A stretch of DNA of 57,418 nucleotides from an uncultured Verrucomicrobiota bacterium (GCA_949295265.1 CASFKR010000006.1:1-57418); one strand, 5' to 3'; shown: positions 1 through 57,418, counted from the stretch's first letter. Numbers and translations are program-made. Notes: generated by a model from the letters alone, not told the origin.

Positions 1-110
1 CGCACCTTCGGAAGATGCTTTGCATCCACCCGACACCATCGGAAGAATATCGCAGTACAATCACATACGAAAGTGTCTACTTTAAATCAGGACTTGACAC
101 TTGTCTCGGT

Positions 111-396
111 GTGCGCAAAAGCAAGCCGTCCTGTCTGTCCTGTACGTCGTGTTCGTCCTGTACGTCGTGTTCGTCCTGTTCCGACTCGCCGCGCTGGTTC
201 ACTGCGCTGACATCGCTACGATCTGGGGCCTCTGGGAGTGGGGCTGCTGGGATTGCCGCTTTGATTCTGCTGCGCTGGCTTCGTCCCGATGATTCCGAAT
301 CCTCCGATGACTCCGATGATTGCGTCAGCATTTGGTACCTTGGCCGGAACATAGTGGAGACTTCAAAACGGGGCTTCGCCCCTCCGTGTGGCTCAA
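111..396 (+). repeat. Mosaic intergenic repeat region R1. Modules: GCGCAAAAGC flank plus 9-nt GTnCGTCnT array (111-196); inverted CCCAGnnGC-type array (221-257); CCGATGAnTCC module (286-324); hairpin module (331-396).
   Basis: Each module recurs elsewhere in the window: 22101-22350, 40803-41290, 45250-45599, 6081-6257, 9128-9191. ORFs predicted across it (15..563 and others) read low-complexity repeat sequence. Confidence 0.8.
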
Positions 397-508
397 TAAC
401 CAAAAAAACTTCGCGCGGCTCCGCCTCGCTGGCTCTCTTCTTCTTTCTCTCGCCCCGTCCGCATGACTTCCCTCCACGCTCCCCGCGCACCGCGGGCTGG
501 GAGGCGGG

Positions 509-1873
509 TTATTTGCCGATGCAGAAACGGCCAAAGACGTTGTCGAGCAAATCTTCGGTGTAGGAACGGCCGGTAATACTGCCCAGCGTACGGGCGGCCT
601 CGCGGAGATGCGAGGCAGCCGGGACCGCCGCCTCTTCCGCACAGCTGTCATACAGGCTGCAAGCCGCTTCCAACTCTTTCCGCGCCGATTGCAGAAGGGC
701 CGCATGCCGTTCATTGATGGTCACGGCCGGTGCCGAAAGGTGGTCCGCCCGGAGCTGCAGGACGCGCCGCAGCGCGGCAAATAGCGCGTCCATTCCCTGC
801 CCTGTCTGCGCAGACAGCAGGATGCCGTCCTCCGGAACAGCCGCACCCGTGGAGAGCATATCCGCCTTGGTGTAAACCCGGATGACGGGCGGACCGTCGG
901 CGGGAGCCTCCGGTATGGACGCCACTGCGGGTGCGGTCACATCCCGGAGAAAAAGCACCACATCGGCGGACTTCGCCAGTGCGCGGGCACGGGCGATGCC
1001 TTCGCGCTCGATTTCATTGCCGGTGGCACGCAACCCGGCCGTGTCGACCAGCCGCAGCACAATGCCATCCAGAAAGAAGGATTCCTCGATGGAATCGCGC
1101 GTCGTCCCCGGCTGATCCGTGACGATGGCGCGGTTCGTCCCCAGCAACGCATTGAACAGCGTGGATTTTCCGGCATTGGCGGGGCCCGACAGCACGACCA
1201 GGGCTCCCTCGCGCAAGAGGCGTCCCTCGCGGAAGAGCGCCATGAGCGCATCGAGCTCCGCCAGCACCGGTTCGAGGCGCGCATGCAGATGCGGCACCGG
1301 AAGGATGCCCCCGACATCCTCATCGGCGAAATCGAGCGTCGCCTCCAGATCGGCGCAAAGCGCGAGCAAGGCGTCGTAAGCGCCGTTGACGCGTTTGCCC
1401 AGCGCGCCGGAAAGCAGTTCCGCCGCCGCCCGTGCCGCCCGTTCGCTGCGGGCGCCCACCAGTTCCATGACGCCTTCCGCCTGCTCCAGCGACAGGCGTC
1501 CATTCAGGAAGGCGCGGCGCGTAAACTCGCCGGGGCCGGCAGGGGCGGCACCCAGCGCAAGCAGCGCATTCAGCACGCGCGCGGGCACTGCCCGCCCGCC
1601 ATGAACCTGAATTTCGACGACATCCTCGCCCGTGTAGCTGTGCGGTGCGCGGAACATCAGCACAATGGCTTCATCGAGCGGCGAACCGTCCGCGGGATCG
1701 CGCAACCGGTAAAACCGGAAAGTGCCGCCCGCCAGATGGGAGGGCGGCACCGCCGTGCCGGGCGCACAAAGACCGTCCGCCAGCGACCCGGCGGCAGGAC
1801 CCGAAACGCGAATCACCGCCAGCCCCGCAGGACCCGGAGCCGTCGCCAGTGCCGCAATCGTCGTTCCGTCCAT
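509..1873 (-). CDS. mnmE: tRNA modification GTPase MnmE (TrmE)
   Basis: 454-aa ORF. N-terminus TIAALATAPGPAGLAVIRVSGP. G-domain motifs GPANAGKSTLFNALLG, DTAGLR, TKADM. Ends in the family-typical C-terminal CIGK. Confidence 0.95.
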   Translation of the reverse strand: MDGTTIAALATAPGPAGLAVIRVSGPAAGSLADGLCAPGTAVPPSHLAGGTFRFYRLRDPADGSPLDEAIVLMFRAPHSYTGEDVVEIQVHGGRAVPARVLNALLALGAAPAGPGEFTRRAFLNGRLSLEQAEGVMELVGARSERAARAAAELLSGALGKRVNGAYDALLALCADLEATLDFADEDVGGILPVPHLHARLEPVLAELDALMALFREGRLLREGALVVLSGPANAGKSTLFNALLGTNRAIVTDQPGTTRDSIEESFFLDGIVLRLVDTAGLRATGNEIEREGIARARALAKSADVVLFLRDVTAPAVASIPEAPADGPPVIRVYTKADMLSTGAAVPEDGILLSAQTGQGMDALFAALRRVLQLRADHLSAPAVTINERHAALLQSARKELEAACSLYDSCAEEAAVPAASHLREAARTLGSITGRSYTEDLLDNVFGRFCIGK

Positions 1874-1878
1874 GGGCG

Positions 1879-4963: not shown

Positions 4964-5803
4964 TTATTGATAGACGCGAACGTACTCGATTTCGAAGCGG
5001 GCCGGGAAAATACCCGGGTCAATCCCCTTCTGTCCGCCCCAGGCGCCGCCGATGGCAAGGTTCAGCAGCAGATAATGAGGTTTGCGGAAGGGATACGGAG
5101 AAAACTCGCTCAAATCGCCCGTTTTCGTGTATTCCCCGGCCTTTTTCCCGTCGATAAACAGCCGGAGCGCCGAGGGTTCCCACTCCAGGACGTACGTCAC
5201 AAAACTGTCGAGGGCGGGCGGATGCACGAGCCGACAGCCGGGCGTCATAACATGCCGGACCGGGGCAAGACGCTTTCCCGCTGCCTTGCTCCTCCGTGCG
5301 GAGGGTTTCCCGCCGCCGTCCGGCTTCTGCCCCGGCCCGTGAAGCGTGAAATGGAGCACATCCGGCTCAAACCCAACGTATTCCATGATGTCGATTTCGC
5401 CGCACCGGGGCCAGCCGACCTCGCCGATATCTTCGCCCAGCATCCAGATGGCGGGCCAGACCCCGCGTCCGCCGGGAACGCGCGCCCGGATTTCGAACCG
5501 GCCATACGTCCAGGCATGCTTTCCAAGGGTCGTAATGGCCGCCGAGGTGCACAGCTCCGTTTCGCCGCCATGTTTGTAGGCATCCAAATGCGCCTCGAGG
5601 ATGAGACGTCCGCCCGATACGCGTGCATTTTTGCGGCGTTCCCGGGTGTAGTATTGGAGTTCCTGATTGCGGCAATACCCTTCCTCATAGGTCCAATTCG
5701 CCGGATCGGGCAACCCGGGCTTGTCGAATTCATCATGCCAGACGAGTTTCAGCCGCTTTCCGGTTGAGGAAAGCACGGTTTCGGGCGCGGGTGTCTTTTT
5801 CAT
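4964..5803 (-). CDS. Glycoside hydrolase family 16 (beta-glucanase / laminarinase-like)
   Basis: WPAIWMLG followed by the GEIDIMEYVG catalytic E-x-D-x-x-E signature. Start placed at the ATG at 5803, which is preceded by AGGAGA. The track ORF extends to 5869. No obvious signal peptide. Confidence 0.85.
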   Translation of the reverse strand: MKKTPAPETVLSSTGKRLKLVWHDEFDKPGLPDPANWTYEEGYCRNQELQYYTRERRKNARVSGGRLILEAHLDAYKHGGETELCTSAAITTLGKHAWTYGRFEIRARVPGGRGVWPAIWMLGEDIGEVGWPRCGEIDIMEYVGFEPDVLHFTLHGPGQKPDGGGKPSARRSKAAGKRLAPVRHVMTPGCRLVHPPALDSFVTYVLEWEPSALRLFIDGKKAGEYTKTGDLSEFSPYPFRKPHYLLLNLAIGGAWGGQKGIDPGIFPARFEIEYVRVYQ

Positions 5804-6080
5804 GCGGTTATCTCCTAAGAAACAGAGAGCGGCGATGCCTCCTGAAAATGGGCTCTCCGTTTTCCCCATTGTAGCGAGAGCGGCCGCACCCCTGCAACCC
5901 CATCCGTGTACAGGTTTATCCCGGTTTTTTTCGGGATAATTTATCCAGATTTCTTGAAAGAAGTCTCCTGTAGCCTCTTTTTAAGACTAGATACTCGTGA
6001 ATAGCCCGCCAATACTTTTTCACCCGAAAGTTCGGTAAAATAACTTTGCCGTCGGTCGCTCCAATGGTTGCGGTGACTTC

Positions 6081-6257
6081 GTTCAGGCGGCTCTGCCGCC
6101 GAGAAAAAGTTCTTATTTGACACCTTGGTCGGAACGTTAGTGGAGACTTCAAAACGGGGCTTCGCCCCTCCGTGTGGCTCAATTTTCTTAACTCATCGCG
6201 AGGCTGAGTTTCACAACCTTCCTCCGTGTGGCTCACAAATCCGGGATAAGCCTGGTG
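6081..6257 (+). repeat. 177-nt composite repeat; inverted copy at 45250-45420
   Basis: Aligns end to end with the reverse complement of 45250-45420, mostly identical by eye. Contains TTGACACCTTGGTCGGAACG, the hairpin GGGGCTTCGCCCC, two copies of CTCCGTGTGGCTCA, and CCGGGATAAGCCTGG. Confidence 0.9.
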
Positions 6258-6270
6258 TACAGCGGGCACA

Positions 6271-6407
6271 GCAAAGCCGCGCGAGGGATTTGTTTCCCGC
6301 AGAGACACAGAGGGAGGGAGAGGGAAAAAGGGAGCGAAGCCGCCGCCACGACCCCGGAGGGGGCGAACTGTCATGCAAAGGATGAGCGAAACGAGTCCTG
6401 AAGCAGG
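6271..6407 (+). repeat. Repeat modules TGTTTCCCGCAGAGACACAGAG (6290-6312) and GCGAAGCCGCCGCCACGACCC...GAACTGTCATGCAAAGGATGAGCG...CTGAAGCAGG (6331-6407)
   Basis: The first module recurs at 16442, 22016 and 50637. The second recurs at 41009-41098 and partly at 16464-16507. Confidence 0.85.
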
Positions 6408-6483
6408 AACAGATACAGAAGCCCTTCGGCCTGTTACAAAGGGAGGTCAGCGCAGAGAACATCAGGACAATCAGGTACAGATT

Positions 6484-6945
6484 TTACTCCTGGAATTTCC
6501 GATTCCAAAAACGGAATGAACAGGCAGTATACCAGTCTACGGAAAATTCACCCGTTGTCCGGTTTAAAATAGCAGCCTCCATCGTTATGTAACAGAAGAC
6601 GCCTTGCGGAGCGGACCATCCGTTTTCAAAGTTTTCAAAGGGGAATGAGATAAGTTTTGTTTCTCCGGGTTCCAGACAGTTGGTCGTCATAACGTAGGAA
6701 AGCCGTTGTAACAGAGCCCCTCTCTCATCGAAAGCATCCGTTCTTGCGGCCACGTCCAGACGGGCTGGAACAGCCAATGAATTGGTCAGAAAGACTGTCC
6801 AAAGAAATGCTTCTCCTTTTTCAATCGAATAGGGAGCGGTAAACGAACATCCGTTTTCAAGGGGCGCATGAACCAAAAGATCCGGCTGCCCAAGACAAAA
6901 TCCAACCGTGAAGAAAATGCAAGCAAGAACAGTCAGCCGTTTCAT
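6484..6945 (-). CDS. Secreted single-domain beta-barrel protein, type B, copy 2 (Transglut_C-like); paralog of 9293-9760
   Basis: Start at the internal Met gives MKRLTVLACIFFTVGFCLGQ, a Sec-type signal peptide. Core motif FTAPYSIEKGEAFLWTVFLTNSLAVPARLDV. Aligns along its length with the 155-aa ORF 9293-9760. AT-rich codon usage unlike the flanks. Confidence 0.8.
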   Translation of the reverse strand: MKRLTVLACIFFTVGFCLGQPDLLVHAPLENGCSFTAPYSIEKGEAFLWTVFLTNSLAVPARLDVAARTDAFDERGALLQRLSYVMTTNCLEPGETKLISFPFENFENGWSAPQGVFCYITMEAAILNRTTGEFSVDWYTACSFRFWNRKFQE

Positions 6946-7057
6946 AACAAATCTGAATTTCAGAAATCCATCAACCAAGGATGCGGCCACTTTCTGGTGC
7001 AGGGGCGTTGTTTTCTCAAACAATTTCATTTCCGCAGCCTGGCCGCCACATATTCTT

Positions 7058-7566
7058 TTATAGAGCCCCTGAATCGCCGTCTTCTGTCAGTGCGGGAAAA
7101 TCGTCCTGTGTAATCGGATTTCCCCGGAGATCCGGCACACGCCATTCGGGAAGAGGAACCACAGCCTGAAAGATTCTCAGGGAGCTGGCGCCTGTCGTCA
7201 GGTTGGTTGTAAAAATAAAAAAATCAATGCAGTCCGGAACCATATTGGACGGCATCCAGTCTTTGAGGGGAAAGACTATTTTTTAAAATCCCCGGCAGCA
7301 AGAAAATTCGTCGTGCATACTATGCCTGCTGAAAAAGAATATGTTGCCCAGGCATTTTTGCCGAGAACGTTGGCATAAATCATTCGTTGGACAGGAAAAT
7401 CCTCTTTGTTGGTTATCGTAAGAGCCCATTCATATGGAACTCCTTTTTCCATCACGCGTGGAGCAAAAAGCCGCACTGCTTCATCGACAACAACCTCACA
7501 GATTTGGACGCCGGATGAAGCAATTGAAAAGAACATCAACGCGATGAATGCGAGCCGTGTTTTCAT
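7058..7566 (-). pseudogene. Secreted beta-barrel protein, type A, copy 2, interrupted by a frameshift at a homopolymer; paralog of 9846-10340
   Basis: ORF 7276-7566 (MKTRLAFIALMFFSIASSG...EWALTITNKEDFPVQ) and ORF 7058-7255 (MPSNMVPDCIDFFIFTTNLTTG...ITQDDFP) match the N- and C-terminal halves of the 9846-10340 protein. Adding one base to the A6 run (plus-strand T6, 7279-7284) restores a single frame reading ..GDFKKIVFPLKDWMPSN.. Confidence 0.8.
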
Positions 7567-7850
7567 CTGTAAAACTCCTTTAAGGATATCCATTTGTTGG
7601 TGTCAGCAAGCTTTGTGTAAATGGAATCTCCGAGTGAATTAAGAACGGTTTTCACATGATTCGTAATCGCTCCATTGACGCTGAAATAATGAACTGGAGC
7701 GGAAACCGCGGCATGGAAATCATTCACATCATACACACAGTTTCCATTCGGTTTCACAGCCGAACGCGGAGCCGGTCCACATTGATATTTCCCGCCACTG
7801 AAAATTTGCGGTGTCCCAATTCGGGGCGCGGCGAACGACCAGCGCATTCG
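7563..7850 (-). pseudogene. Animal-type transglutaminase core, C-terminal remnant (fragment 3)
   Basis: RIGTPQIFSGGKYQCGPAPRSAVKPNG..YDVNDFHAAVSAPVHYFSVNG parallels 10337-10903. It lacks the Cys and His motifs, and the Asp position reads R-I-G-T-P-Q. It begins right after the stop of the upstream gene. Its stop overlaps the next start as ATGA. Confidence 0.75.
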
Positions 7851-7862
7851 TCCCGGTTAATT

Positions 7863-8876
7863 TTACAGTCCCGGACTCAACTGTGATTCCGTTGGAATAG
7901 AGTTTGTGCATTCGGCTACATCAATATCAAGCAGATTCCAATTGAAATTCGTATCTGTACGGTTGATAATATTGATGCTGAACTCCACACAATCGAATGG
8001 AGGCGGATTCGTAGGGTACCAGTTTTCAGCCACAGAAAACGGAAGCAGCCGGGACTCCCCGGGGGCGATATTGTTCGTTGAAATCACTGCGGCCAGACGT
8101 TTGTATGGTCGCCCATAATCATACTTGGCATCAACGCTGGAGCAGACATCCAGCCGAAGCGTTTTGGCTGTTGTATTCGTAATAAAGACACTCCACTCGA
8201 TTGGTTGAAAAATACTTACCCTTGAAGGAACTGTAAAATAACACCCATCGGCAAGCGGCATCACTTTCATTGGCGCATTTGTCTTATCCTTTAAAGAAAG
8301 CGTGTTATTGGAAGCCGCCCGAAGCATTTTTTGAATCAGCGCCGGATTGTCGCGAATCCGGAAGTTGTTCGTGGACGTAATGTAATAACCATCTATCTTT
8401 CCTGATATATGTTTTTTCGTTTCCAGATTAGTGATATCAGCAGTAAATCGGATATCTCTACCTTTCGGAACCCAATGATCCACTTTATAGGACATAACCC
8501 CGGATTCACCGGGAGCCAACAGATTCGTTGTTATATTGTTGTAAAGATTAGCGATTTCCACCCCATTATAGTACCTCCATCGGGCTGTGGTCCTGACAAT
8601 CAGATGAACGGGGAAAGAGAATTGATTGGTTATACCGATAGACCACTCTATCGGCTTCCCTTTGTAAACGATACCGGGTGAGGTGATTGAAAAACCATTG
8701 CCAAGATGCTGCTCACGTGGTCCCGATGACCATTTTACCATCTTAATCCGCCCCTTAACTGGGCTTCGGTTCGTTATACAATTAACAATTTCACTATTCG
8801 AAATTTCATGCGCTTCCTGTCCTTGACAGAAAGTCGCAAATATAAACCAGACAAATGCTAAAATAAAACTTTTCAT
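7863..8876 (-). CDS. Secreted two-domain beta-barrel protein (two tandem Transglut_C-like domains)
   Basis: Signal peptide MKSFILAFVWFIFATFCQGQ. Domain 1 has KGKPIEWSIGITNQFSFPVHLIV. Domain 2 has FQPIEWSVFITNTTAKTLRLDV ... IAPGESRLLPFSVAENWY. Confidence 0.8.
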   Translation of the reverse strand: MKSFILAFVWFIFATFCQGQEAHEISNSEIVNCITNRSPVKGRIKMVKWSSGPREQHLGNGFSITSPGIVYKGKPIEWSIGITNQFSFPVHLIVRTTARWRYYNGVEIANLYNNITTNLLAPGESGVMSYKVDHWVPKGRDIRFTADITNLETKKHISGKIDGYYITSTNNFRIRDNPALIQKMLRAASNNTLSLKDKTNAPMKVMPLADGCYFTVPSRVSIFQPIEWSVFITNTTAKTLRLDVCSSVDAKYDYGRPYKRLAAVISTNNIAPGESRLLPFSVAENWYPTNPPPFDCVEFSINIINRTDTNFNWNLLDIDVAECTNSIPTESQLSPGL

Positions 8877-9133
8877 GGATTAACTGAAGTTTCTTTATTT
8901 TTGTATTCGTCCGTTAAATCTACACCATAAATTGTCCGGGGATACTGAGTCATAATCAAAATTCCAGCCTCATGTTCACCGTTTGTTGATACACATTCAA
9001 CTCCGTTTTCATACTTGTAAACATTGCAGTTAACACCGTTTTTTACGAAACTCCGGGGAGCCGGTCCGCACTGAAACTTACCATCACTGAGTTCCTGTGG
9101 AGTTCCATCATGTGGCACATGGAAAATCTTAAT
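8873..9133 (-). pseudogene. Animal-type transglutaminase core remnant (fragment 2), 5-prime end replaced by a repeat module
   Basis: ..KIFHVPHDGTPQELSDGKFQCGPAPRSFVKNG.. The FHV and DGTPQ motifs are joined by an apparent internal deletion. The upstream reading frame runs into repeat module 9128-9191 and hits an in-frame stop at 9164-9166. The 3-prime end overlaps the next ATG as ATGA. Confidence 0.7.
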
Positions 9134-9191
9134 TTGACACCTTGGTTGGAACGTAGTGGAGATTCAAAACGGGGCTTCGCCATATGGCTCA
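9128..9191 (+). repeat. Hairpin repeat module (copy inside the island)
   Basis: CTTAATTTGACACCTTGGTTGGAACGTAGTGGAGATTCAAAACGGGGCTTCGCCATATGGCTCAA matches 6111-6181 and 331-396. Confidence 0.85.
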
Positions 9192-9292
9192 ATCATCCGG
9201 AAACTTCAATTGAAATTTTCCGGTCAAATTGAGGAAGACGCCCCGTTATTTGATTTTGTACGGAGGGTTCCCAAACCTTACCGTTACATGCC

Positions 9293-9760
9293 TTATCGAT
9301 TGCGGTCCTTGTCCGAAAACGGATTTGGGCGATAGAACGTACTGGCGGAATGCCAGTTAACAGAAAATTCTTCTGTCGTCCGGTTTAAGACGGCTGCTTC
9401 CATAGTCATATACGACATGCGACCGGACGGCGCCGTCCATCCCGGTTCTACTGAAATGAGAAGGCGTTTGAACGCTCCCGGAGCCAGATAATTTGTGGTC
9501 AACCCATACGAAAGCCGAAGAAGCCGTTCTCCGGAATCACCAATCAAATCCGTCCTTGTCAGGACATCCAGCCGGACAGGAATACTGGCTGAATTCGTTA
9601 GAGATACCGACCATTGAACAGGCATTCCTTTACGGACATCATAAGGAGCCGTCAAATAACTGCCGTTCCCAATTGTTGCGTGAACAACAACGTCCGAACG
9701 GCCAAAGCAGAAGACCGCACATGCAATCCAACACAAGGAAATAGCAAATAGAGTTTTCAC
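9293..9760 (-). CDS. Secreted single-domain beta-barrel protein, type B, copy 1 (Transglut_C-like)
   Basis: Signal peptide MKTLFAISLCWIACAVFCFG. Core motif LTAPYDVRKGMPVQWSVSLTNSASIPVRLDV. Paralog of 6484-6945. Confidence 0.8.
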   Translation of the reverse strand: MKTLFAISLCWIACAVFCFGRSDVVVHATIGNGSYLTAPYDVRKGMPVQWSVSLTNSASIPVRLDVLTRTDLIGDSGERLLRLSYGLTTNYLAPGAFKRLLISVEPGWTAPSGRMSYMTMEAAVLNRTTEEFSVNWHSASTFYRPNPFSDKDRNR

Positions 9761-9845
9761 AGCGGCAGGTTTTCGTATGGGGAACGCATGATTCTATCCG
9801 ACAGGAAGATGACATCCAAAACGAAACTTCACATAAAAAGGTCAA

Positions 9846-10903: not shown

Positions 10904-10914
10904 TTAGTGAAAAA

Positions 10915-10953
10915 GGCCTTGTTTGCCGAAGGAATCGCACCTGATTCGATGCG
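10915..10953 (+). repeat. Repeat module GGCCTTGnTTGCCGAAGnAAnCGCACCTGATTCGATGCG (second copy at 57324-57361)
   Basis: Near-identical 39-nt strings at both sites. This copy abuts the right edge of the AT-rich island. Confidence 0.8.
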
Positions 10954-11003
10954 CCTTTTCCTGAGGTCTACGCCCTTTTACCCGGCAGCAGCAGCGGACG
11001 AAG

Positions 11004-16418: not shown

Positions 16419-16441
16419 GCAACGGAAGCCCATGGGAAGGT

Positions 16442-19719: not shown

Positions 19720-19830
19720 AAACAGGACGGCTCGCTACGGCACACAGCTCGCCATCGCACGCAACGGAGCCAGCGTAGCTCCCCCAGTAGCCCCAGTTGC
19801 CCCAGCACTCCCAGTAGCCTCAGTGGCCCA
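19720..19830. repeat. Mosaic intergenic repeat region R6
   Basis: AAACAGGACGGCTCGCT (flank of the GTnCGTCnT array, inverted), GGAGCCAGCG, then a 9-nt periodic CCCAGTAGC-type array at 19778-19830 ending in CCCAGATAGCG. Confidence 0.8.
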
Positions 19831-19911
19831 GATAGCGGGCGCGGCGGGGAATCTCCGCCCTGCCGAATTTCCGTGCGGAAAGGTCCGGCGATTTCTGATA
19901 CACTTCGCTCC

Positions 19912-22015: not shown

Positions 22016-22358
22016 TTTTGTTTCCCGCAGAGACACAGAGGCAAAGAGTTACTTTGAAAAGTTACACACAGAGGCAAAGCCGCGAGAGGGATTAGAAAAT
22101 TTAGCCACACGGAGGGGCGAAGCCCCCTTCTGGAGCCTCCACTTCGTTCCGACCAAGGTATCAAATAAGGACATTTCTCGGCGGCAAGCCGCCTGATACT
22201 AAGCCGTGCAATCGAGCCGAAAACAGGACGAACACGACGCACAGGACGAACACGACAGACAGGACGGCTCGCTTTTGCGCACAAGGAGACCAGCGAAGCA
22301 TTCCCAGGAGCCTCAGTAGCCTCCCCCAGCGACTCCAGATAGGAGCGAAGCCAGCGCA
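22016..22358. repeat. Mosaic intergenic repeat region R7
   Basis: TTTTGTTTCCCGCAGAGACACAGAGG; inverted hairpin module at 22101-22196; inverted GTnCGTCnT array with GCGCAAAAGCGAGCC flank at 22220-22282; CCCAGnAGC-type array at 22301-22343; GCCAGCGCA at 22350-22358. Confidence 0.85.
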
Positions 22359-39578: not shown

Positions 39579-39734
39579 CGATGAACTCCGGAGAGAATGG
39601 GTTTCGTACGTTAGGTTTTCAAAGAGCAAACCGAATCGCGGGATTCGGGATCCGGACCGCAGTCGCGGTGCCGTCAAGAAAGGGAGCGGGTGGTTCCGTC
39701 CGGCAGGATGCAGGAGCCGGAACCGGGGGCCTCT

Positions 39735-40802: not shown

Positions 40803-41290
40803 GAGCCACACGGAGGGGCAAAGTCACACGGAGGCAAAGCCAGCGCAGAATGATGACAACGAAGGCGATGCCAGCGCAACGAGTCAAAACAGGACGAACA
40901 CGACGAACAGGACGAACACGACGAACAGGACGAACAGGACAGCTCGCTTTTGCGCACAACGAGGCTATCGGAGACAGCGCTGCCGAGCGAAGCCGTCAAT
41001 AGTACCAGGGGCGAAGCCGCCGGAAGGAACCGCCGCCACGACCCTGAAGGAGTCGAACTGTCATGCGAAGGATGAGCGCGAGCGAATTCTGAAACAGGGT
41101 TGGTATTAGAAGCGCGCCCCGGACTGTCACAGACGGAGGTTCTTCATCGGCCCCGGAGCGCGCAGGTTGTCTGCGGCGAAGCGGCGGAGACGAAGCCGAT
41201 GATTCCAGCGGCTTCGCCTCCGATCTTCCCGATACTTCCGAGGATTCCGATTTTGCCCTGTCCTGTTCGTCGTGTTCGTCCTGCTTGCGC
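40803..41290. repeat. Mosaic intergenic repeat region R8
   Basis: GAGCCACACGGAGGGGCAAAG; two GCCAGCGCA; inverted GTnCGTCnT array with GCGCAAAAGCGAGC flank at 40871-40957; GCGAAGCCGCCGGAAGG...CTGAAACAGG at 41009-41098; CCGATGATTCC module at 41192-41257; forward short array at 41258-41290. Confidence 0.85.
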
Positions 41291-41312
41291 GGACCGGGCT
41301 GCAGACGGCGAA

Positions 41313-45210: not shown

Positions 45211-45249
45211 GACTTCATCCTATCAAAAACCGGCCAAGAACCCAACCTG

Positions 45250-45420
45250 CACCAGGCTTATCCCGGATTTTTGAGCCACACGGAGGAAGGTTGTGAAACT
45301 CAGCCTCGCGATGAGTTAAGATAATTGAGCCACACGGAGTAGCCCCCTTCTAAAGTCTCCACTAACGTTCCGACCAAGGAGTCAAATAAGGACTTTTTCA
45401 CGGCGGCACAGCCGCCTGGA
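45250..45420 (-). repeat. Inverted copy of the 177-nt composite repeat (6081-6257)
   Basis: The reverse complement aligns end to end with 6081-6257. Confidence 0.9.
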
Positions 45421-45456
45421 GCGGAGCCAGCGCAGTGTTGTGGTCAGGTGTGGCGG

Positions 45457-45599
45457 CAAGCCGTCCTGTTCGTCGTGTCCGTCCTGTTCGTCGTGTTCGT
45501 CCTGTTCTCGGTAGCCGCCACACCGCCCCACTCCCAGTGGCCCCAGTAGCCCCAGTAGCCCCATCTGCCCCAGTAGCCCCAGTGACTCCAGTGGCCCCA
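45457..45599 (+). repeat. Two adjacent 9-nt periodic arrays: GTTCGTCGT/GTCCGTCCT units (45457-45508) and CCCAGTAGC units (45526-45599)
   Basis: ..GTCCTGTTCGTCGTGTCCGTCCTGTTCGTCGTGTTCGTCCTGTTC.. then CCCAGTGGC CCCAGTAGC CCCAGTAGC CCCATCTGC CCCAGTAGC CCCAGTGAC TCCAGTGGC. Confidence 0.9.
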
Positions 45600-45682
45600 T
45601 ACTGCGGCGGGACGTCACGTTGCTCCGCAGGTTGTGCGCTCGTAACGGCGGAGCCGACGGGGCGCGGGAACGGGCGGGTGCG

Positions 45683-45714
45683 AAAAAGGCGGCCGGGAAA
45701 CCCGACCGCCTTTT
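45683..45714 (-). terminator. Intrinsic (bidirectional-looking) terminator after the surface-protein gene
   Basis: GGCGGCCGGG-AAA-CCCGACCGCC stem flanked by A5 and T4. On the minus strand the hairpin is followed by TTTTT. Confidence 0.65.
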
Positions 45715-45744
45715 GTCCGCCGCAGCGGAAGAGTGTTACCCCGA

Positions 45745-47172: not shown

Positions 47173-48100
47173 CGGGTTCCGAGCGGCTCGGGCTGACCAG
47201 CGCGGAGGATCCCATGGCGGTGGTGGAGAGATCGCTTCCGGAGAAGGTTTCGGTAAAGACCGTTTCCATCGGAACCGGAATTTCCACCGTAATGGTCACG
47301 GACTGCTGCCAGGTCGTGCCGTTGACAACCGTCTCGAAAATCAGCGTGTAAACCCCTTCATCCGCCTCAGTGGGCGTCCACGAAAGTGTGGAGCCAACGA
47401 ACGCCGGCTGTGCGGAGGCAGGCACCGGTGTGACAGACGCCAGCGTCACGGTGCAAACCGTTCCATCGACCTGAGCGGCACTGACCGTGAAGGAGGTTTC
47501 AACACCGGTTTCAAACGTTGCTTCGGTCGGTGCCGTGAAAACGGGCGCCGCGGACGCAACCGTCACAGGAACAACCTGCGTGTATGCCGCCCCGGAAACC
47601 ATTGTCTGGAACGTCAATTCATAGTCGCCGACTTCGGCCTCTGCGGGTGTCCACGAGAGCGTGGAGCCTTCCCAAGTGGGCGTTGTAGAGGCGGGAGTGG
47701 GCGAAACGGACGCCAGCGTGACGTCGAGAACGGTCACGCCATCGGAGGCGAGCGCACTCACGTCAAACGTACCGGCCTTACCGGCCACCAAGGTCACCGA
47801 TTCCGGCGCTGTGAACGACGGGGCATCACCCGTGCTTTCCGGGATGTCTTGCGTGACGGTGATGGTGTCGAGCACGACAGCGCCGTCATCCTGCGCCGGG
47901 TCGAACCGGAGCATGAAGCCCGTCGGAACATCCGTAAAGGTAAGCGTCTTGAAGTTGCCTTCCGCCGTAATTTCTGCGGCCGTGGAAACCAACGTCAGCC
48001 CCGAAAGCGTTTGCGAAGTCAGAGCCGTCCCGTCTGCATCCAGAATGGAGACGACGGCGTCGTTGGCAGCTTTACGGGATTTGCACGCATAGAGCGTCAC
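47021..48100 (-). CDS. Surface protein module 1 (Ig-like repeats). Its 3-prime part reads into the module-2 leader and ends out of frame.
   Basis: ..TLYACKSRKAANDAVVSILDADG.. and Ig-like repeats, then ..PVPMETVFTETFSGSDL.., which repeats the mature N-terminus of 48097-48384. The frame is not continuous with either neighbour. Confidence 0.55.
   Translation of the reverse strand: MTLYACKSRKAANDAVVSILDADGTALTSQTLSGLTLVSTAAEITAEGNFKTLTFTDVPTGFMLRFDPAQDDGAVVLDTITVTQDIPESTGDAPSFTAPESVTLVAGKAGTFDVSALASDGVTVLDVTLASVSPTPASTTPTWEGSTLSWTPAEAEVGDYELTFQTMVSGAAYTQVVPVTVASAAPVFTAPTEATFETGVETSFTVSAAQVDGTVCTVTLASVTPVPASAQPAFVGSTLSWTPTEADEGVYTLIFETVVNGTTWQQSVTITVEIPVPMETVFTETFSGSDLSTTAMGSSALVSPSRSEPGEFLSDTADHAGWIGQAVREQRLGAEPGDYAHERRCHGRHHGDALCVQIP
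47023..47124. repeat. 102-nt perfect direct repeat, copy 2
   Basis: Identical base for base to 48074-48175. The flanks are only partly similar. Confidence 0.95.
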
Positions 48101-48175
48101 CGTGATGTCGGCCGTGGCAACGCCGTTCGTGAGCGTAATCGCCGGGCTCTGCGCCCAGCCTTTGTTCTCGGACCG
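48074..48175. repeat. 102-nt perfect direct repeat, copy 1
   Basis: Identical base for base to 47023-47124. Confidence 0.95.
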
Positions 48176-48384
48176 GCATTGTCTGCCGTGTTAGCAGCAA
48201 AATTCTCGGCCGTCGTGCGGCTTGCAACCAGTCCAGTGGCGGCCATGGACGTAGTCCCTGCGAGCACACTTCCGGAAAAGGTCTCGGTAAAAATCGTTTC
48301 CGTTGCCGCAGAAGCGGTGGAGGCAACGGCAAGGGCTGCAAGCCCAAGCGAAAGGGTTCGTACGAAGGAATGGAAGGATTTCAT
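48097..48384 (-). CDS. Signal-peptide N-terminal segment of the surface-protein locus, frame-interrupted before the conserved block
   Basis: MKSFHSFVRTLSLGLAALAVASTASAATETIFTETFSGS.. After ..NTADNAG the frame departs from the conserved SENKGW frame. Confidence 0.5.
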   Translation of the reverse strand: MKSFHSFVRTLSLGLAALAVASTASAATETIFTETFSGSVLAGTTSMAATGLVASRTTAENFAANTADNAGPRTKAGRRARRLRSRTALPRPTSR

Positions 48385-48850
48385 GGAGAATCCAAGAGTA
48401 GTTCTGGGGAGAGCGACGAAAAATGCGGTAAGACGGCGAAAATCAGGCGCTTGCGCCTCTGGAGATGCCAGGAACTCATCCTTTGCGGAAGAAGACCCTT
48501 ACACTATTTCTTGTGTACGTGAATGTATTCTACCACAAAATGTATGGGGTCTTATCAGAAAAATGACGGTTGAATGCAAATTTCTCCAAGTCAGGCTCTG
48601 AAAAGGCTTTCTCCGGAAATTCCGGAATTTCGCGCGGGCGCAAAGACGGTTTTCGGCGTTCCGGAGAATATACTACCCGATTCCGCGCTTGAGAGGGTGT
48701 TCGGTTTTCGTGAGTTATCGGTTCCCTCCCCGTCAGAAAATCCGGGAATTTGGAATTTTTGTCTTGCTTTTTTGAAATAGAGGTGCGATTCTTGTCGCAC
48801 CGCTGAAGGTTCAGTCTTTTTCACACGACACGGATAATCGGAGAGCTTTT

Positions 48851-50636: not shown

Positions 50637-50966
50637 TTTGTTTCCCGCAGAGCCGCAGAAAAAAGCAGGCGAAGCTAAGCAGACGACTGCCGCTAACAAA
50701 GCCAGCGTCGGACAGGACGTACAGGAGCGCCAAACTGCCGCCTGTGAAAAGGAGCGTCACGCGAAACCAGCGGGAAGGCAGACTTTCAAGCGATGCTGCG
50801 GAGAGACTGCCCCACTCCCAGTGATCCCAGTAGCCTCAGTGGTCCCATCCTGTGGCGCGCTTGTCCGGCCCCGGTGTAGCTGGTGCGACTGCTTTCCGGC
50901 TGCCGAGCAGCCGCAATGCCAGCGGGGGCTCCCCGCCCGCATTGCCAGCGGGGGCTCCCCGCCCGC
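50637..50966. repeat. Mosaic intergenic repeat region R10, including a 2 x 26-nt tandem duplication (50915-50966)
   Basis: TTTGTTTCCCGCAGAGCCGCAG; GCCAGCGTCGGACAGGACGTACAGGAG; CCCACTCCCAGTGATCCCAGTAGCCTCAGTGGTCCCA at 50810-50847; A(A/T)TGCCAGCGGGGGCTCCCCGCCCGC twice. Confidence 0.85.
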
Positions 50967-50982
50967 ACCAAAAGGGCGGAAC

Positions 50983-54079: not shown

Positions 54080-57000
54080 TCAGTTTTTGCCGTGGCAGTT
54101 CTTGTACTTCTTGCCGGAGCCGCAGGGGCAGGGATCGTTGCGGCCGATTTTGCGGTGCCCGCCCGGCTGAGTGCCGGGCTGCGCGGACGCTCCGCCGGAG
54201 GCCTGTTGCGCGGCGCGGCTGGCGGCGGCGCGGGCCAGAAGCTGGTCAAAGGCGGCATTGGCGCGGCTGGCGGCGGGGGAAGGTTGCGCCACGGTGCGCG
54301 TCTGCTGGGCGGTATTTTCCGGACTGATGAGCTGCACGCGGCGGGGGCGGCGCAGCTCGGCCATGAAGTTCTGCATCGTCTCCACGGACGTGGAGGCGCG
54401 GAAGAGGCCGGCGCAGGCGCTCGTTTTGATGGAGAGCATCAGGCGCTCAAAGAGTCCGTACGCCTCACGCTTGTACTCGATGAGCGGGTCGCGCTGGCCG
54501 TAGGCGCGCAGACGCACCGCATCGCGCAGATCGTCCATGGCGCGCAGATAATCCTGCCATTCCCGGTCGATGGCGCGCAGGAGCACGAAACGTTCGAGGC
54601 GCGGGAGAATCTCCGCATCTTCCATGGAGCACTTCAGTTCGTAGGCCTCCTGAACGCGCGCGTAAATCATGTCCGCCGCGCCTTCGGGATTGCCCGCGAA
54701 GGACTTGAGTTCTTCGGCCTGGACGGGCACCGGGAAGATGCCGCTGATCCACTCGGCGAAATCCTCGGGCTGCGCATCCTTTTCGCCGCCCGTCAGGTAG
54801 GTCTCCGCCTGCGTCAGCACGATATCGTGCAGAATGTCGAGCGCCAGCCCGTGGATATCCTCCTTGGCGAGGACGTCGGAGCGGAAATCGTAGACGATGG
54901 CGCGCTGGCGGTTCATCACATCATCGTATTCGAGCGTGCGCTTGCGGATGGAGAAGTTGCGCTCCTCGACGCGCCGCTGCGCCGTTTCGATGCTGTGGTT
55001 GAGCCAGCGGTGCTCAATCGGCTCGCCTTCCTGCATACCCAGGCGCGTCATAATCGAGGCAATGCGGTCGGACCCGAACAGGCGCATCAGACTGTCTTCC
55101 AGCGAAACGTAGAAGCGCGAGGCGCCGGGGTCGCCCTGGCGGGCGCAACGGCCGCGCAGCTGGCGGTCGATGCGGCGGGATTCGTGGCGCTCCGAGCCGA
55201 TGACGTAGAGCCCGCAGGGCCGCTCGTTGAGCAGGTCGCGCAGCGTCTTGCTTTCGCCGGCGGGCTTTTCATCCAGCGACAGCTGCGAATGGATGAGCTC
55301 CTGCGGCGTCCAGACGACGCCGGGGCCGAGCTTGATGTCCGTGCCGCGGCCCGCCATGTTGGTGGCGATGGTCACGGCACCCTTTTGTCCGGCCAGCGCG
55401 ACGATTTCCGCTTCGCGGGCGTGGTTCTTGGCGTTGAGCACGTTGTGCGGAATGCCCGCCTGGCGGAACTGGCGCGAAAGCTGTTCGGAGGTTTCGACGG
55501 ACACCGTGCCGATGAGCACGGGCTGTCCGTTGCGGTGGCACTCGGAAACCTCCTTGATGATGGCGGCGAATTTCTCGCGCTGCGTGCGGAACATCAGGTC
55601 ATTGCGGTCCACGCGCCGAATCGGCCGGTTCGTGGGAATGACGACCACATCGAGATGGTAGATGTCGTTGAATTCGGAGGCTTCCGTTTCCGCCGTACCG
55701 GTCATGCCGGAGAGCTTCTTATAGAGGCGGAAGTAATTCTGAATGGTGATGGTGGCCAGCGTCTGCGTTTCGCGCTCGATCTGGACGCCTTCCTTGGCTT
55801 CGACGGCCTGGTGGAGGCCGTCGCTCCAGCGCCGTCCCGGCAGAATGCGCCCGGTGAATTCGTCGACGATGAGCACCTTGTTGTCCATCACGACGTAATC
55901 CGTGTCCTTCTCGAAGAGCGTATACGCCTTGAGGAGCTGGGCGATGTTCTGAATGCGCTCGGTGCGCTCGGCAAAGCGCTGTTGCACTTCGTGGCGGCGC
56001 CTGGCGCGTTCTTCGCGCGGCAGGTTCTCGCTGTCGATTTCCGCCATCGCCGAGACGATGTCCGGCACCACGAAGAGTTCCGGATCGGAGGGATTGAGTT
56101 CAGCGCAGCCGCGGTCCGTGAGCGCCGCGTCGCGCATCTTTTCATCGACCGTGAAGAAGAGTTCCTCGCGATACGTGCGCGCCTCGTCCTTGTGCATGTC
56201 CGTCAGCATCATGTTTTCGACGGTTTCATGAAGCTTGCGGACGGCCGGGTCTTCGAGCATGGCCATGAAGACCTTGCTCTTCGGCATGCCGTGATAAATC
56301 TGGTAAAGGCACTTCTGAGCGCGCGCCTCATCGCCGGTTTCGAGCGCCTTTTTGCAGGCGGCGAGCCGCTCGTCGATGAGTTTTTCCTGGCGGCGGAAGA
56401 GGGCGGCCACGCGGGGCTGCAGATCTTTGTACTGGTTGGAGGAATACTCGGCGGGACCGCTGATGATCAGCGGCGTGCGCGCCTCGTCGATCAGGATGGA
56501 GTCCACCTCGTCGACAATCGCAAAAGTATGCCCGCGTTGCACCTGGTCGCGCACATCCTGCGCCATGCCGTTGTCGCGCAGATAGTCGAACCCGAACTCG
56601 GAGTTCGTGCCGTACGTGATGTCGCACGCATACTGCTCGCGCCGTTGCATCGGATGCATCGTATTCTGGATGCACCCGACCGTCAGCCCCAGCCACTTGT
56701 ACAGGTGCCCCATCCACTGGGAGTCGCGCAACGCCAGGTAGTCGTTGACCGTGACGAGCTGCACGTTTTCGCCCGTAAGCGCATTCAGATAGAGCGGAGC
56801 CGTCGCGACGAGCGTCTTGCCTTCGCCCGTCTGCATTTCTGCGATTTTACCCTGATGCAGGACGATGCCGCCCATCAGCTGCACGTCGAAGGGGACCATG
56901 TCCCACGTCAACGTGTGCCCGCAAACCTCGCACGTCGTGCCGCACAGGCGGCGGCATGCATTTTTCACGACGCCAAACGCCTCGGGGAGCAGTTGGTCGA

Positions 57001-57172
57001 GCGTTTCGCCGTCTGCAAGCCGCTTCTTGAACTCCGGCGTCTTCGCCTGGAGCTCTTCGTCGCTCAACGCCTTGTACTTTTCATCCCACTCATTGATCTT
57101 GTTGACAATGGGACGGAGACGCTTGACGTCGCGGGCATGCTTTGTGCCGAAAATTGCTTCAAAAATATTCAT
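54080..57172 (-). CDS. secA: Preprotein translocase ATPase SecA
   Basis: 1030 aa. MQTGEGKTLVA (Walker A), TVNDYLA, DEVDSILIDEARTPLIISG, and a C-terminal zinc finger CPCGSGKKYKNCHGK. Confidence 0.97.
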   Translation of the reverse strand: MNIFEAIFGTKHARDVKRLRPIVNKINEWDEKYKALSDEELQAKTPEFKKRLADGETLDQLLPEAFGVVKNACRRLCGTTCEVCGHTLTWDMVPFDVQLMGGIVLHQGKIAEMQTGEGKTLVATAPLYLNALTGENVQLVTVNDYLALRDSQWMGHLYKWLGLTVGCIQNTMHPMQRREQYACDITYGTNSEFGFDYLRDNGMAQDVRDQVQRGHTFAIVDEVDSILIDEARTPLIISGPAEYSSNQYKDLQPRVAALFRRQEKLIDERLAACKKALETGDEARAQKCLYQIYHGMPKSKVFMAMLEDPAVRKLHETVENMMLTDMHKDEARTYREELFFTVDEKMRDAALTDRGCAELNPSDPELFVVPDIVSAMAEIDSENLPREERARRRHEVQQRFAERTERIQNIAQLLKAYTLFEKDTDYVVMDNKVLIVDEFTGRILPGRRWSDGLHQAVEAKEGVQIERETQTLATITIQNYFRLYKKLSGMTGTAETEASEFNDIYHLDVVVIPTNRPIRRVDRNDLMFRTQREKFAAIIKEVSECHRNGQPVLIGTVSVETSEQLSRQFRQAGIPHNVLNAKNHAREAEIVALAGQKGAVTIATNMAGRGTDIKLGPGVVWTPQELIHSQLSLDEKPAGESKTLRDLLNERPCGLYVIGSERHESRRIDRQLRGRCARQGDPGASRFYVSLEDSLMRLFGSDRIASIMTRLGMQEGEPIEHRWLNHSIETAQRRVEERNFSIRKRTLEYDDVMNRQRAIVYDFRSDVLAKEDIHGLALDILHDIVLTQAETYLTGGEKDAQPEDFAEWISGIFPVPVQAEELKSFAGNPEGAADMIYARVQEAYELKCSMEDAEILPRLERFVLLRAIDREWQDYLRAMDDLRDAVRLRAYGQRDPLIEYKREAYGLFERLMLSIKTSACAGLFRASTSVETMQNFMAELRRPRRVQLISPENTAQQTRTVAQPSPAASRANAAFDQLLARAAASRAAQQASGGASAQPGTQPGGHRKIGRNDPCPCGSGKKYKNCHGKN

Positions 57173-57302
57173 GGAATCAAAAAGAGACCCGCGGCCCGCA
57201 TGTTGAAACCGAAACGGGACCGCGAACCGGAAAGAGAACGAATCGGGACGCTTTCCATGCTAGCACAACACCCCGGCTCTGTCCATGCCGGCAACCCCCC
57301 CC

Positions 57303-57361
57303 GGGCTTATCCCGGTTTATTCGGCCTTGATTGCCGAAGTAAACGCACCTGATTCGATGCG
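57303..57361 (+). repeat. Repeat modules GGGCTTATCCCGG and GGCCTTGATTGCCGAAGTAAACGCACCTGATTCGATGCG
   Basis: The first motif recurs at 5913, 6241 (inverted) and 45254. The second matches 10915-10953. Confidence 0.8.
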
Positions 57362-57418
57362 TTTACTTTTGCAATCCTGGACGGGTCGGGGTTCGGGTGC
57401 TGCAATCGAGGCGGGGAA

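Follow-up and report, generated by a model that had tools for sequence, protein, structure and literature searches.

Long intergenic gaps of an uncultured Kiritimatiellia bacterium hold a species-specific set of small repeat modules

The long intergenic gaps of an uncultured Kiritimatiellia bacterium hold a real, species-specific set of small repeat modules. The initial annotation had described these modules as one family; instead, at least four kinds can be told apart, namely a MITE with its fragments, tandem arrays of period 9, and two sorts of short element, hairpin modules and junction motifs. On balance, we think it likely that the modules are small repeats of several families, non-coding and either selfish or neutral, heaped in the intergenic DNA of one species and reshuffled by slippage and ectopic recombination. 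The pattern, which the initial annotation could not place, belongs to no named family, but at the level of kind it fits known intergenic mosaic elements and MITE nests. In our view this is one more 'intergenic mosaic element', a known kind, rather than a system of a new kind.

Repeat clusters in intergenic spacers

Self-comparison of the window (the entire 57,418-nt stretch of DNA analysed) returned 40 repeat pairs at E < 1e-3, compared with none in each of 20 composition-preserving shuffles, and the matches covered 1,440 of 5,009 spacer bases. All nine modules (A–I) were found again where they had been noted, and the spacers do hold a dense non-coding mosaic. Repeat-covered bases outside the listed spacers were confined to paralogous segments at 7191/9961 and 7672/10446, in an AT-rich island, and at 46804/47855. 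Independent ENA and Logan assemblies, made from several samples, contain the same clusters, showing that they are not an assembly artefact.

Clusters had been assigned to eleven spacers. Repeats are present in the listed spacers, but 9119–9292 and 10904–11003 carry a single module apiece rather than a cluster, and gene starts called in other assemblies move the start of spacer 19590 to 19405 and place the end of spacer 21903 at 22665. The clusters sit in spacers of all three types (tandem, convergent and divergent), and their orientation with respect to the genes is not fixed. Module order and orientation vary, as proposed: B is inverted between 40888–40940 and 41260–41286, and C is found both ways round. 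However, the shuffling is only partial, as the clusters have a common polarity (approximately 30% A versus 10–14% T on one strand) and a loosely conserved module order. CRISPR was rejected as a candidate, in agreement with the reported lack of regular spacing: the arrays are head-to-tail 9-mers without spacers, the dispersed modules are irregular and there are no cas genes in the window or fetched loci.

A 344-bp MITE and its fragments

A complete MITE, Element-1, occupies 5911..6254 on the minus strand. It is 344 bp long, flanked by the direct repeat GTGTA at 5906–5910 and 6255–6259, and comprises, in order, an inverted terminus, a unique AT-rich interior, the hairpin CGGCGGCagaGCCGCCG, the A-core, two CTCCGTGTGGCTCA motifs (S motifs) and the other inverted terminus. 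The site is filled in the window and in strains L002 and L003, whereas strain L001 has an empty site with a single GTGTA (TACAC as printed) and lacks the 344 bp. Its 14-nt inverted termini (CAGGYTTATCCCGG), the duplication of 5 bp of target and the filled versus empty site identify Element-1 as a MITE of the cut-and-paste type; it is also small, non-coding and multicopy, with one complete two-ended copy seen. As single-stranded DNA it folds end to end (z = −3.8), and its 160-nt interior has a second copy at a different locus (approximately 21362–21640 in L014).

This revises the earlier statement that no terminal inverted repeats are evident. Module H is the MITE terminus, found as CAGGTTTATCCCGG at 5911..5924 on the plus strand and CAGGCTTATCCCGG at 6241..6254 on the minus strand; the termini are 14 nt long with one Y position and, when extended to 18 nt, are complementary at 16 of 18 positions (89%). 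Module H is located at 5911, 6241, 45253 and, with one mismatch, 57302, where the terminus-like CGGGCTTATCCCGG (57302..57315, plus strand) folds into a small hairpin with a T-run behind it. The subterminal repeat of the MITE is the CTCCGTGTGGCTCA motif, present in 8 copies at up to 2 mismatches versus 0.4 expected, and module A is the interior of the MITE.

Most occurrences of A, H and S are one-ended or truncated MITE copies. Module A is found at 330–397, 6083–6183, 9132–9190, 22094–22196 and 45339–45418. The A-core copy at 330..397 (plus strand) lacks the upstream hairpin and ends in an S motif at 382–395; that at 9132..9190 (plus strand) is degenerate and lies within the AT-rich island; and that at 22094..22196 (minus strand) has its hairpin at 22179–22193 and an S motif at 22101–22114. 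A one-ended copy of the left 170 nt of the MITE at 45250..45418 (plus strand) contains a terminus (45253–45266), two S motifs, the A-core and the hairpin, lacks the second terminus and runs straight into modules E, B and C. It is 91% identical to 6084–6257, in opposite orientation; other strains differ here by the loss of 79 nt (L008) or 25 nt (L018) or by a 43-nt tandem duplication (L014). Two spurious ORFs, P0127 and P0129, contain further copies of the long A end with terminus. One MITE accounts for A, H and the S motif only; no terminal inverted repeats were found to bound modules B–G.

Period-9 tandem arrays

Modules B, C and D are tandem arrays with a 9-nt period. Gains and losses of units come in multiples of 9 nt, and strains differ in copy number by the equivalent of 27, 27 and 36 nt. 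Module B is found at 103–197, 19720–19746, 22217–22290, 40871–40963, 41258–41290 and 45456–45511. The element at 103..197 (plus strand) consists of the head CTCGGTGTGCGCAAAAGCAAGCC, 6 units (CGTCSTGTN) and a tail, and has 10 units (+36 nt) in L001. Array and head are also present at 22217..22290 (minus strand), and a minimal element at 19720..19746 (minus strand) is reduced to the head and one unit. The 6-unit element at 40871..40963 (minus strand) has 3 units in L008 and 4 in L013, and is replaced by an A-core in L014. A short array at 41258..41290 (plus strand) is inverted relative to 40888–40940. The 5-unit array at 45456..45511 (plus strand) lies inside an 11–18-nt inverted repeat (45440–45457 / 45514–45531); in L013, this position holds a short segment with a B unit in the opposite orientation.

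Module C is found at 224–252, 19782–19838, 22303–22345, 45525–45606 and 50809–50849. The array at 45525..45606 (plus strand) has approximately 7.4 units of CCCAGTRGC and a G-quadruplex motif, (GGGGCYACT)n, on the other strand; it is 27 nt shorter in L008 and has more units plus a 24-nt insert in L014. Arrays at 19782..19838 and 50809..50849 run in the same direction (plus strand), as does a degenerate one at 22303..22345 that ends in CCAGATAG, and the array at 224..252 has the opposite orientation (minus strand), with the G-quadruplex motif on the plus strand. The latter is part of a block (202–286; E, C, E) that is found again at L027 5670–5751 with 85% identity. Module D (CCGATGAYT, period 9) forms two plus-strand arrays, at 286..319 and 41195..41255.

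Junction motifs and hairpin modules

The junction motif E (GCCAGCGCA; extended, GCGRAGCCAGCGYAGC) is present in 7 exact copies compared with 1.35 expected, 5 of which are within spacers. Two copies at 40839..40878 (plus strand) lie 31 nt apart, and the 31-nt unit between them is missing in L008; other exact copies are at 271–279 (minus strand), 22350–22358 and 45426–45434. At L027 5570–5830, E stands between modules. Module F (TTGTTTCCCGCAGAGACACAGAG) has four copies, at 6290..6312 (plus strand), 16441–16463, 22018–22040 and 50638–50652, and module G three, at 6340..6388 (plus strand), 16466–16497 and 41014–41078; the last of these carries an insert of approximately 105 nt with a hairpin, at GGGTCG, in L013 and L014. 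Module I (TTGCCGAAG..CGCACCTGATTCGATGCG) at 10915..10953 (plus strand) is 92% identical to the copy at 57323..57361 (plus strand), which lies within a hairpin with 26-nt arms (57322–57383).

A GC-rich, REP-like imperfect palindrome (GCAATGCCAGCGGGGGCTCCCCGCCCGCATTGC) at 50911..50967 (plus strand), formed by 2.2 copies of a 26-nt tandem repeat, is a member of a second repeat family. It has one unit fewer in L018, L020 and L021, and its core occurs again at L027 11215–11239. Mini-hairpin motifs of the sequence GCGAAGC are enriched fivefold in spacers, with 13 of 29 occurrences in 8.7% of the sequence.

Strain variation and distribution

Among strains whose flanks are more than 99% identical, we found five structural haplotypes at 45211–45744 and four at 40614–41312. 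Indels and duplications of modules, an apparent inversion and the replacement of modules distinguish these forms. A repeat-free spacer (48250–48850) showed base substitutions and 1-nt indels only in the same strains; hypervariability is thus restricted to the repeats. A segment of approximately 200 nt in the rpsL spacer of L013 and L014, missing from the window, is colinear with L027 5860–6010, arguing for ectopic exchange.

The modules are not confined to the window: they also occupy over 10 loci elsewhere in the same population, including L027, L028 (downstream of a 5S rRNA gene) and approximately 10 further representative ORFs. In GTDB representative genomes and JGI metagenomes, collections from which the species itself is absent, they were not found, bar one chance coding hit in each, and they are absent from a relative with an 89% identical EF-G and from another with an 82% identical EF-G, in which the rpsL leader spacer measures only 122 nt. 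From these absences, the modules are species-specific and recent. The relative with the 82% identical EF-G carries octamer arrays.

Origin of the clusters

If the clusters are, as we favour, neutral or selfish repeats, a DDE-type transposase encoded elsewhere in the genome would move the MITE; the absence of a transposase from the window, reported initially, extends to the approximately 100 kb covered by the window and other fetched loci, in which no other mobilizing enzyme was seen either. Replication slippage would alter the arrays, probably assisted by the G-quadruplex-forming C array, and nested insertion together with ectopic recombination or gene conversion between clusters could yield the mosaics. 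Such exchange may be anchored on short shared motifs: E, S, GGGTCG and the mini-hairpin GCGAAGC. The clusters would persist because insertions are presumably tolerated in the zone between the terminator of the upstream gene and the next promoter, and effects on transcription or recombination of neighbours, if any, would be by-products. Several observations are not predicted if unrelated elements pile up in a purely neutral way, namely the strong and consistent A>T asymmetry of one strand, the recurrence of junction motif E and the string E, B, E, G′, E, A, S, S, terminus, found in this order in several spurious ORFs; together they are a hint of some larger composite unit or shared mechanism. 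Also counting against the favoured reading, modules B–G have no demonstrated ends or target duplications, the MITE is seen in only one complete two-ended copy and those approximately 100 kb contain no mobilizing enzyme.

An alternative, which we consider unlikely, is that E and/or S are sites of a dedicated site-specific recombinase that inserts, excises and exchanges cassette-like modules and may promote exchange of flanking genes, as in NIME-like recombination arrays. Such a recombinase could account for the L027 modules being parted by E (B, E, C′, E, B, E), for the two E copies that bound a 31-nt indel and for a recurrent junction made of S, then AATMATMATYC, then E. Moreover, GTGTGGCTCA is always joined to the A-core, with the 79-nt A-core indel falling at CTCC^GTGTGGCTCA; the GH16 gene adjoining cluster 5870–6483 is only approximately 81% identical between strains; and Neisseria NIME arrays behave similarly (PMC1797815). 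However, E is not an inverted repeat and is, in the window, far less regular than dRS3 in NIMEs; the 79-nt indel is not a clean insertion, as its left flank differs by 3–4 nt; most tracts that diverge between strains (42.0–43.0 kb and 47.25–48.0 kb) end away from clusters; and no recombinase gene was seen in the sequence examined.

Equally doubtful is mobilization of the hairpin-bearing modules as single-stranded DNA by an HUH/Y1 enzyme (RAYT or IS200/IS605-type TnpA), in the manner of REP, REPIN or PATE-like elements. This would cover the A-core with its two hairpins (the GC hairpin CGGCGGCnnnGCCGCCG near one end and GGGGCTTCGCCCC near the other), the approximately 105-nt insert in module G and the palindrome at 50911–50967, which is of the typical GC-rich imperfect kind, and the enrichment of GCGAAGC mini-hairpins would agree with it. 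The A-core indel has no inverted termini and has the tetranucleotide CTCC on both sides, but these flanks are equally explained by microhomology-mediated deletion. Most modules are non-palindromic, their starts have no conserved GTAG-type 5′ tetranucleotide head, the left hairpin is missing in two A-core copies and the right one in GGGGGCTACTCC-variant copies, and neither the window nor the fetched loci contain a RAYT or TnpA gene. There is a similarly small chance that a dedicated enzyme of either type, site-specific recombinase or HUH-type, inserts and exchanges tiny cassettes at CTCC^GTGTGGCTCA and GCGRAGCCAGCGYAGC and so builds strand-polarized, T-poor arrays. If this were true, the clusters would be no passive accumulation but a NIME-like system with chemistry of its own within the PVC superphylum, and intergenic regions, possibly with the expression of neighbouring genes, would be hypervariable within the population.

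Slightly less probable still is that the modules serve a function, as RNA or in regulation, and were duplicated before and after many genes; they could be small RNAs, leader or anti-Shine–Dalgarno elements, terminators or promoters (module A contains TTGACA). One strand is rich in GGAGG/AAGGA-like motifs, making its complement rich in CCUCC; module H is a short hairpin followed by a T-run and module I a hairpin; and clusters lie in 5′ leaders, such as those of rpsL and clpB, and in 3′ trailers, such as that of 5S rRNA. Against such functions, the A-core alignment has no covariation (1 compensatory pair, covariation term +0.53), modules are not enriched in promoter-like or terminator-like sites, the spacing from TTGACA to downstream bases differs among copies, the polarity of a cluster does not consistently follow the direction in which its flanking genes run, and whole modules are dispensable between strains. 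Membership of a known RNA family was rejected: no cluster had an Rfam match at gathering or relaxed thresholds, and two sub-threshold matches fall outside clusters.

Finally, the clusters are non-coding, given the stop codons in every frame of most of them, the lack of Pfam matches for ORFs called within repeats and between-strain indels of 79, 25, 43, 31 and 1 nt, which are not multiples of 3. It is highly improbable that they are genes, whether real or in decay, that encode small, repetitive proteins of low complexity, such as acidic SSESSE...EQDEHD or hydrophobic FVLFVVFVL peptides from the period-9 arrays. In favour of genes, the period of the arrays is divisible by 3, ORFs of 105–313 aa are called across clusters and, reasoning from the sequence, D (SES) and B (EQDEHD) are open in the same frame at two loci. 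Against them, the strain indels break every frame, modules occur in both orientations and in differing orders, no start codon opens the most protein-like frame of B, and the frame of the predicted ORFs changes from locus to locus.

Relation to known repeat elements

Like the MITEs Correia/CREE of Neisseria, RUP of Streptococcus pneumoniae and ERIC/IRU, Element-1 is a small, non-coding intergenic element that has inverted termini and a short target duplication, occurs in some strains and not in others, and folds on itself end to end. It differs from them in that no parent insertion sequence with the same termini was identified in the window or fetched loci, only one complete copy was seen and most copies are one-ended or fused to other modules. 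We know of no MITE family whose termini match those of Element-1.

In NIMEs, RS modules are separated by dRS3 (PMC1797815). Both NIMEs and the clusters described here are exclusively intergenic and comprise many different short modules (20–200 nt) parted by a short recurring motif, with strain differences in module number and array length and with insertion of other small elements into the arrays (PMC1797815). Here, however, junction E is no 20-bp inverted repeat, is less regular than dRS3 and flanks only some modules; no phage or recombinase link is known, no clear association with flanking-gene divergence was found and the sequences are unrelated. We therefore rejected NIME membership for want of a dRS3-like 20-bp inverted-repeat unit around the modules; the resemblance holds in some respects only.

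BIMEs are built from REP units and mobilized by RAYT (PMC3184786). They share with the clusters the character of extragenic mosaics of short motifs with GC-rich hairpins, clustered between genes, and the window has one REP-like palindrome family (50911–50967). Unlike in BIMEs, most modules are non-palindromic, REP orientations do not alternate, there is no GTAG-type head and no RAYT was seen in the window or fetched loci, and tandem 9-mers and a strong A/T strand asymmetry are not BIME features. REP/BIME membership was rejected in turn: modules A–G are not palindromic, and only 50911–50967 is REP-like.

BOX elements of Streptococcus pneumoniae consist of boxA, a variable number of boxB subunits and boxC, with a subunit of approximately 45 nt and matching A and C ends that can pair. 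The B element likewise has a head, variable tandem subunits and a tail, with a unit number that varies between strains, but its subunit is 9 nt instead of approximately 45 nt and the sequences are unrelated. Cyanobacteria have STRR heptamer arrays with small dispersed repeats, and Deinococcus radiodurans has mosaic small non-coding repeats (SNR). As in the clusters, intergenic short-period arrays (7–9 nt) are mixed there with very small mobile repeats into lineage-specific mosaics; the phyla, unit lengths and sequences differ, and the likeness is one of sequence pattern. The closest counterparts of the clusters are MITE nests together with BIME, NIME and BOX elements.

Genomic setting of the repeat clusters

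The window is chromosomal, has a G+C content of about 62% and carries mnmE, lytB, asd, adhE, a MacB-type ABC pair and clpB, together with the rpsL-rpsG-fusA-S10 ribosomal operon and genes for CCA/polyA polymerase, dnaB and secA. Its EF-G shares 99–100% identity with proteins in a number of ENA and Logan assemblies, and no more than 82% with proteins named 'Kiritimatiellae bacterium'. Judged by sequence similarity, the host is an uncultured member of the Kiritimatiellia (PVC group), whose closely related strains occur in several samples. The source samples carry the ENA accessions ERZ16268162-296, with runs ERR10610613-681.

At E < 1e-3, self-comparison returned 40 repeat pairs for the window and 0 for 20 block shuffles, confirming that the repeats are real. 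All modules, A to I, were recovered at the positions given in the initial annotation. The limits of some spacers need minor correction. Self-matches cover 1440 of 5009 spacer bases, and those beyond the spacers are paralogous segments only. The motifs S (CTCCGTGTGGCTCA) and E (GCCAGCGCA) occur eight and seven times, compared with 0.4 and 1.35 occurrences expected from shuffles. The clusters recur in independent assemblies and are therefore not artefacts.

A MITE and its fragments

L001, a contig of a close strain, lacks window positions 5911-6254, with flanks on both sides 98–100% identical to the window. The extra 344-bp segment carries CAGGYTTATCCCGG at both ends in inverted orientation and is bordered by a GTGTA direct repeat (5906-5910 and 6255-6259), of which the empty site in L001 retains one copy (TACAC, on the opposite strand). 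As single-stranded DNA, the segment is predicted to pair end to end (z = -3.8). It shows the defining features of a MITE, and module H is its terminus; because of these inverted termini, the earlier statement denying any evident terminal inverted repeats is wrong for the MITE part. Two copies of S lie just inside one end of the element, and module A with a GC hairpin is a portion of its interior. A 160-nt stretch of this interior, otherwise unique, has a second copy after rplO in L014, another close-strain contig, at a locus different from that of the 344-bp element and occupied in the window by an unrelated spacer. Positions 45250-45418 hold a MITE copy with one end only, and the copies of A found at 330, 9132 and 22094 are fragmentary.

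The copy at 9132 (9132-9190) is the one degenerate core of module A (A-core) within an AT-rich island of hypothetical genes at 6400-10900, with 43–50% G+C compared with 62% overall. Parts of this island are only 56–63% identical in L001, or are rearranged or duplicated there; the island is probably horizontally acquired and strain-variable.

Tandem arrays and a junction motif

The remaining modules are of different kinds. In B, C and D, units repeat head to tail with a period of 9; the B array comes with a conserved head, TGTGCGCAAAAGCGAGCC, and tail, a layout that resembles a miniature BOX element. On one strand, the C array reads (GGGGCYACT)n, a canonical G-quadruplex motif as predicted from sequence (225-251, 19781-19812 and 45526-45580), and of the six G4 motifs in the window, five are in the repeat spacers. 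A DnaA-box reading of the 9-mers was ruled out by their mismatch to TTATCCACA. E is a short junction motif with the extended form GCGRAGCCAGCGYAGC. At another locus of the same population (L027 5570-5830), it separates successive modules in the order B, E, C', E, B, E; within the window, E is less regular. Module I is a hairpin, and a REP-like palindrome occupies 50911-50967.

A common polarity marks the clusters: about 30% A and 10–14% T on one strand, against a window average of 19% each. This polarity did not consistently follow the orientation of flanking genes, and no relation to gene direction or GC skew was apparent at the sample size here. The repeat spacers are five-fold enriched in GCGAAGC, a DNA mini-hairpin of unusual stability; they make up 8.7% of the sequence and hold 13 of its 29 copies. 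The motif is frequently found at module borders.

Clusters change structure between strains

The behaviour of the clusters between strains was our most informative result. Spacer 45211-45744 occurs in five structural forms among strains with identical or near-identical flanks: the form in the window; one with a 25-nt deletion; one in which the A-core loses 79 nt and the C array is short by three units; one in which the B and C arrays are swapped for a short segment that carries an inverted B unit; and one with a 43-nt tandem duplication, additional C units and a 24-nt insert. Spacer 40614-41312 has four forms across strains, which vary in the number of B units (6, 3 or 4), in a 31-nt unit flanked by two E motifs, in an insertion at GGGTCG within module G that measures about 105 nt or more, and in an A-core that stands in place of a B element. 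L001 has 10 units in the B array at 103-197, compared with 6 in the window, and the palindrome at 50911 differs between strains by one 26-nt unit. In the same strains, the repeat-free spacer 48250-48850 shows base substitutions and 1-nt indels only. Protein coding by the clusters is excluded because the indel lengths (79, 25, 43, 31 and 1 nt) break the reading frame.

Neighbouring regions also vary. Between the window and L001, identity is only about 81% for the GH16 glycoside hydrolase gene at 4964-5869, compared with 98–100% for neighbouring genes, and this allelic replacement adjoins the cluster at 5870-6483; divergent patches at 42.0-43.0 kb (L008) and 47.25-48.0 kb (L013 and L014) do not abut clusters. 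Two adjacent genes for large hypothetical proteins share a 320-nt duplicated segment (46804-47124 and 47855-48175, 84% identity); in L013 and L014 they are called as a single 907-aa gene, with 17-65 nt indels near 48170-48240. Ten contigs, assembled from different samples, all break off inside the 3' end of secA (about 54100-54300), at points 70-260 nt upstream of the HD-domain gene, suggesting that strain-variable or repeated sequence at this site breaks assemblies.

A young family in a repeat-prone lineage

Among GTDB representative genomes, the B-array pattern matched once, within coding sequence of an unrelated Chloroflexia MAG; these representatives do not include the species or its repeats. 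In JGI metagenomes, the A-core pattern gave one chance match, on a coding contig, and scanning viral contigs with CCTCCGTGTGGCTCA gave 37 single matches, judged to be at chance level for a 15-mer. A spurious ORF across the cluster at 21903-22665, used as a query, retrieved ORFs from two further loci. The DNA at both contains the same modules; one is L027 5100-6030 and the other L028 1-300, which begins just after a 5S rRNA gene. At the latter, two A-cores, B and E directly follow the 5S gene and its terminator, so that the rRNA operon trailer is colonised too. An exhaustive profile search with one such ORF yielded about 10 more representative ORFs, which hold translated B, E, G, A, S and terminus sequences, frequently in the order E, B, E, G', E, A, S, S, terminus. 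Given their presence at these other loci and ORFs, the modules are dispersed through the genome rather than restricted to the window.

A relative with 89% identical EF-G has a long repeat-filled spacer before rpsL, of a different family that is shared with L027 11000-11580. This second family (L027 11000-11580 and L012 1-560) is very GC-rich (for example, GCAAGTAGCACACGCTGAGAGTTTTGC and CCCGTGGCGGCTCGCCACCGCGG), lacks the A/T strand asymmetry, includes the window palindrome at 50911-50967 and is 83–100% identical between this population and the relative. A relative with 82% identical EF-G has 122 nt only before rpsL, and carries tandem octamer arrays (CAGACCGT, GGTTCTCG and GTCCTGAG) in the spacer after rplO (L066 15269-15802). 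Short-period intergenic arrays may be a trait of the wider lineage. As these relatives lack the family of the window, it is young and species-specific, in a lineage prone to intergenic repeats.

Searches for function

Rfam searches at gathering and relaxed thresholds gave zero matches in the clusters, and a tRNA/tmRNA search found nothing there. Between rpsG and fusA, positions 39590-39748 (minus strand) gave a sub-threshold match to the Rfam SrbA sRNA (31 bits compared with a gathering threshold of 69, E 4e-4), probably a chance match or an unrelated leader structure. The consensus RNA fold of 8 A-core copies showed no covariation, and scans for sigma-70 promoters and intrinsic terminators found neither enriched in the modules. 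For the A-core, sigma-54 and ECF promoters were ruled out by eye, as the required GC/CGT elements and spacing are unconserved.

Interpretation

The clusters are best read as several families of small repeats, selfish or neutral, nested together. One MITE and fragments of it, 9-mer tandem arrays of variable copy number, and module-level indels and replacements between strains are all observed. The MITE would have been transposed by an unseen DDE enzyme and the arrays changed through replication slippage, with ectopic recombination possibly anchored at short shared motifs. Genes for a transposase, a REP-associated tyrosine transposase (RAYT), TnpB or a recombinase were found neither in the window nor in the fetched loci.

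This reading leaves the strand asymmetry, the junction motif E and the recurrent module order unexplained, which keeps two other mechanisms alive. One, which is unlikely, is NIME-like. The other, equally doubtful, would involve an HUH enzyme, of the single-strand-acting class. Of the divergent tracts between strains, one adjoins a cluster and the others do not; such tracts generally do not end at clusters. If the ordinary explanation of a repeat nest alone holds, the clusters are one more lineage-specific repeat family; the period-9 arrays (one predicted to form G-quadruplexes), the strong excess of A over T on one strand and the recurring junction motifs go beyond a simple MITE model.

Intergenic regions of this uncultured Kiritimatiellia population, among them the rpsL and clpB leaders and the rRNA operon trailer, change in structure far faster than the surrounding genes. 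Such variation could be a source of strain-to-strain differences in expression, and it offers fine-scale strain markers. The repeats also break metagenome assemblies of the lineage, with several contigs ending inside clusters, and seed spurious ORFs of 100–300 aa that are now in protein databases. As a type, the clusters group with MITE nests and with BIME, NIME and RIME, which are intergenic mosaic elements (PMC3184786, PMC1797815); judged by defining features, they are members of none of these families.
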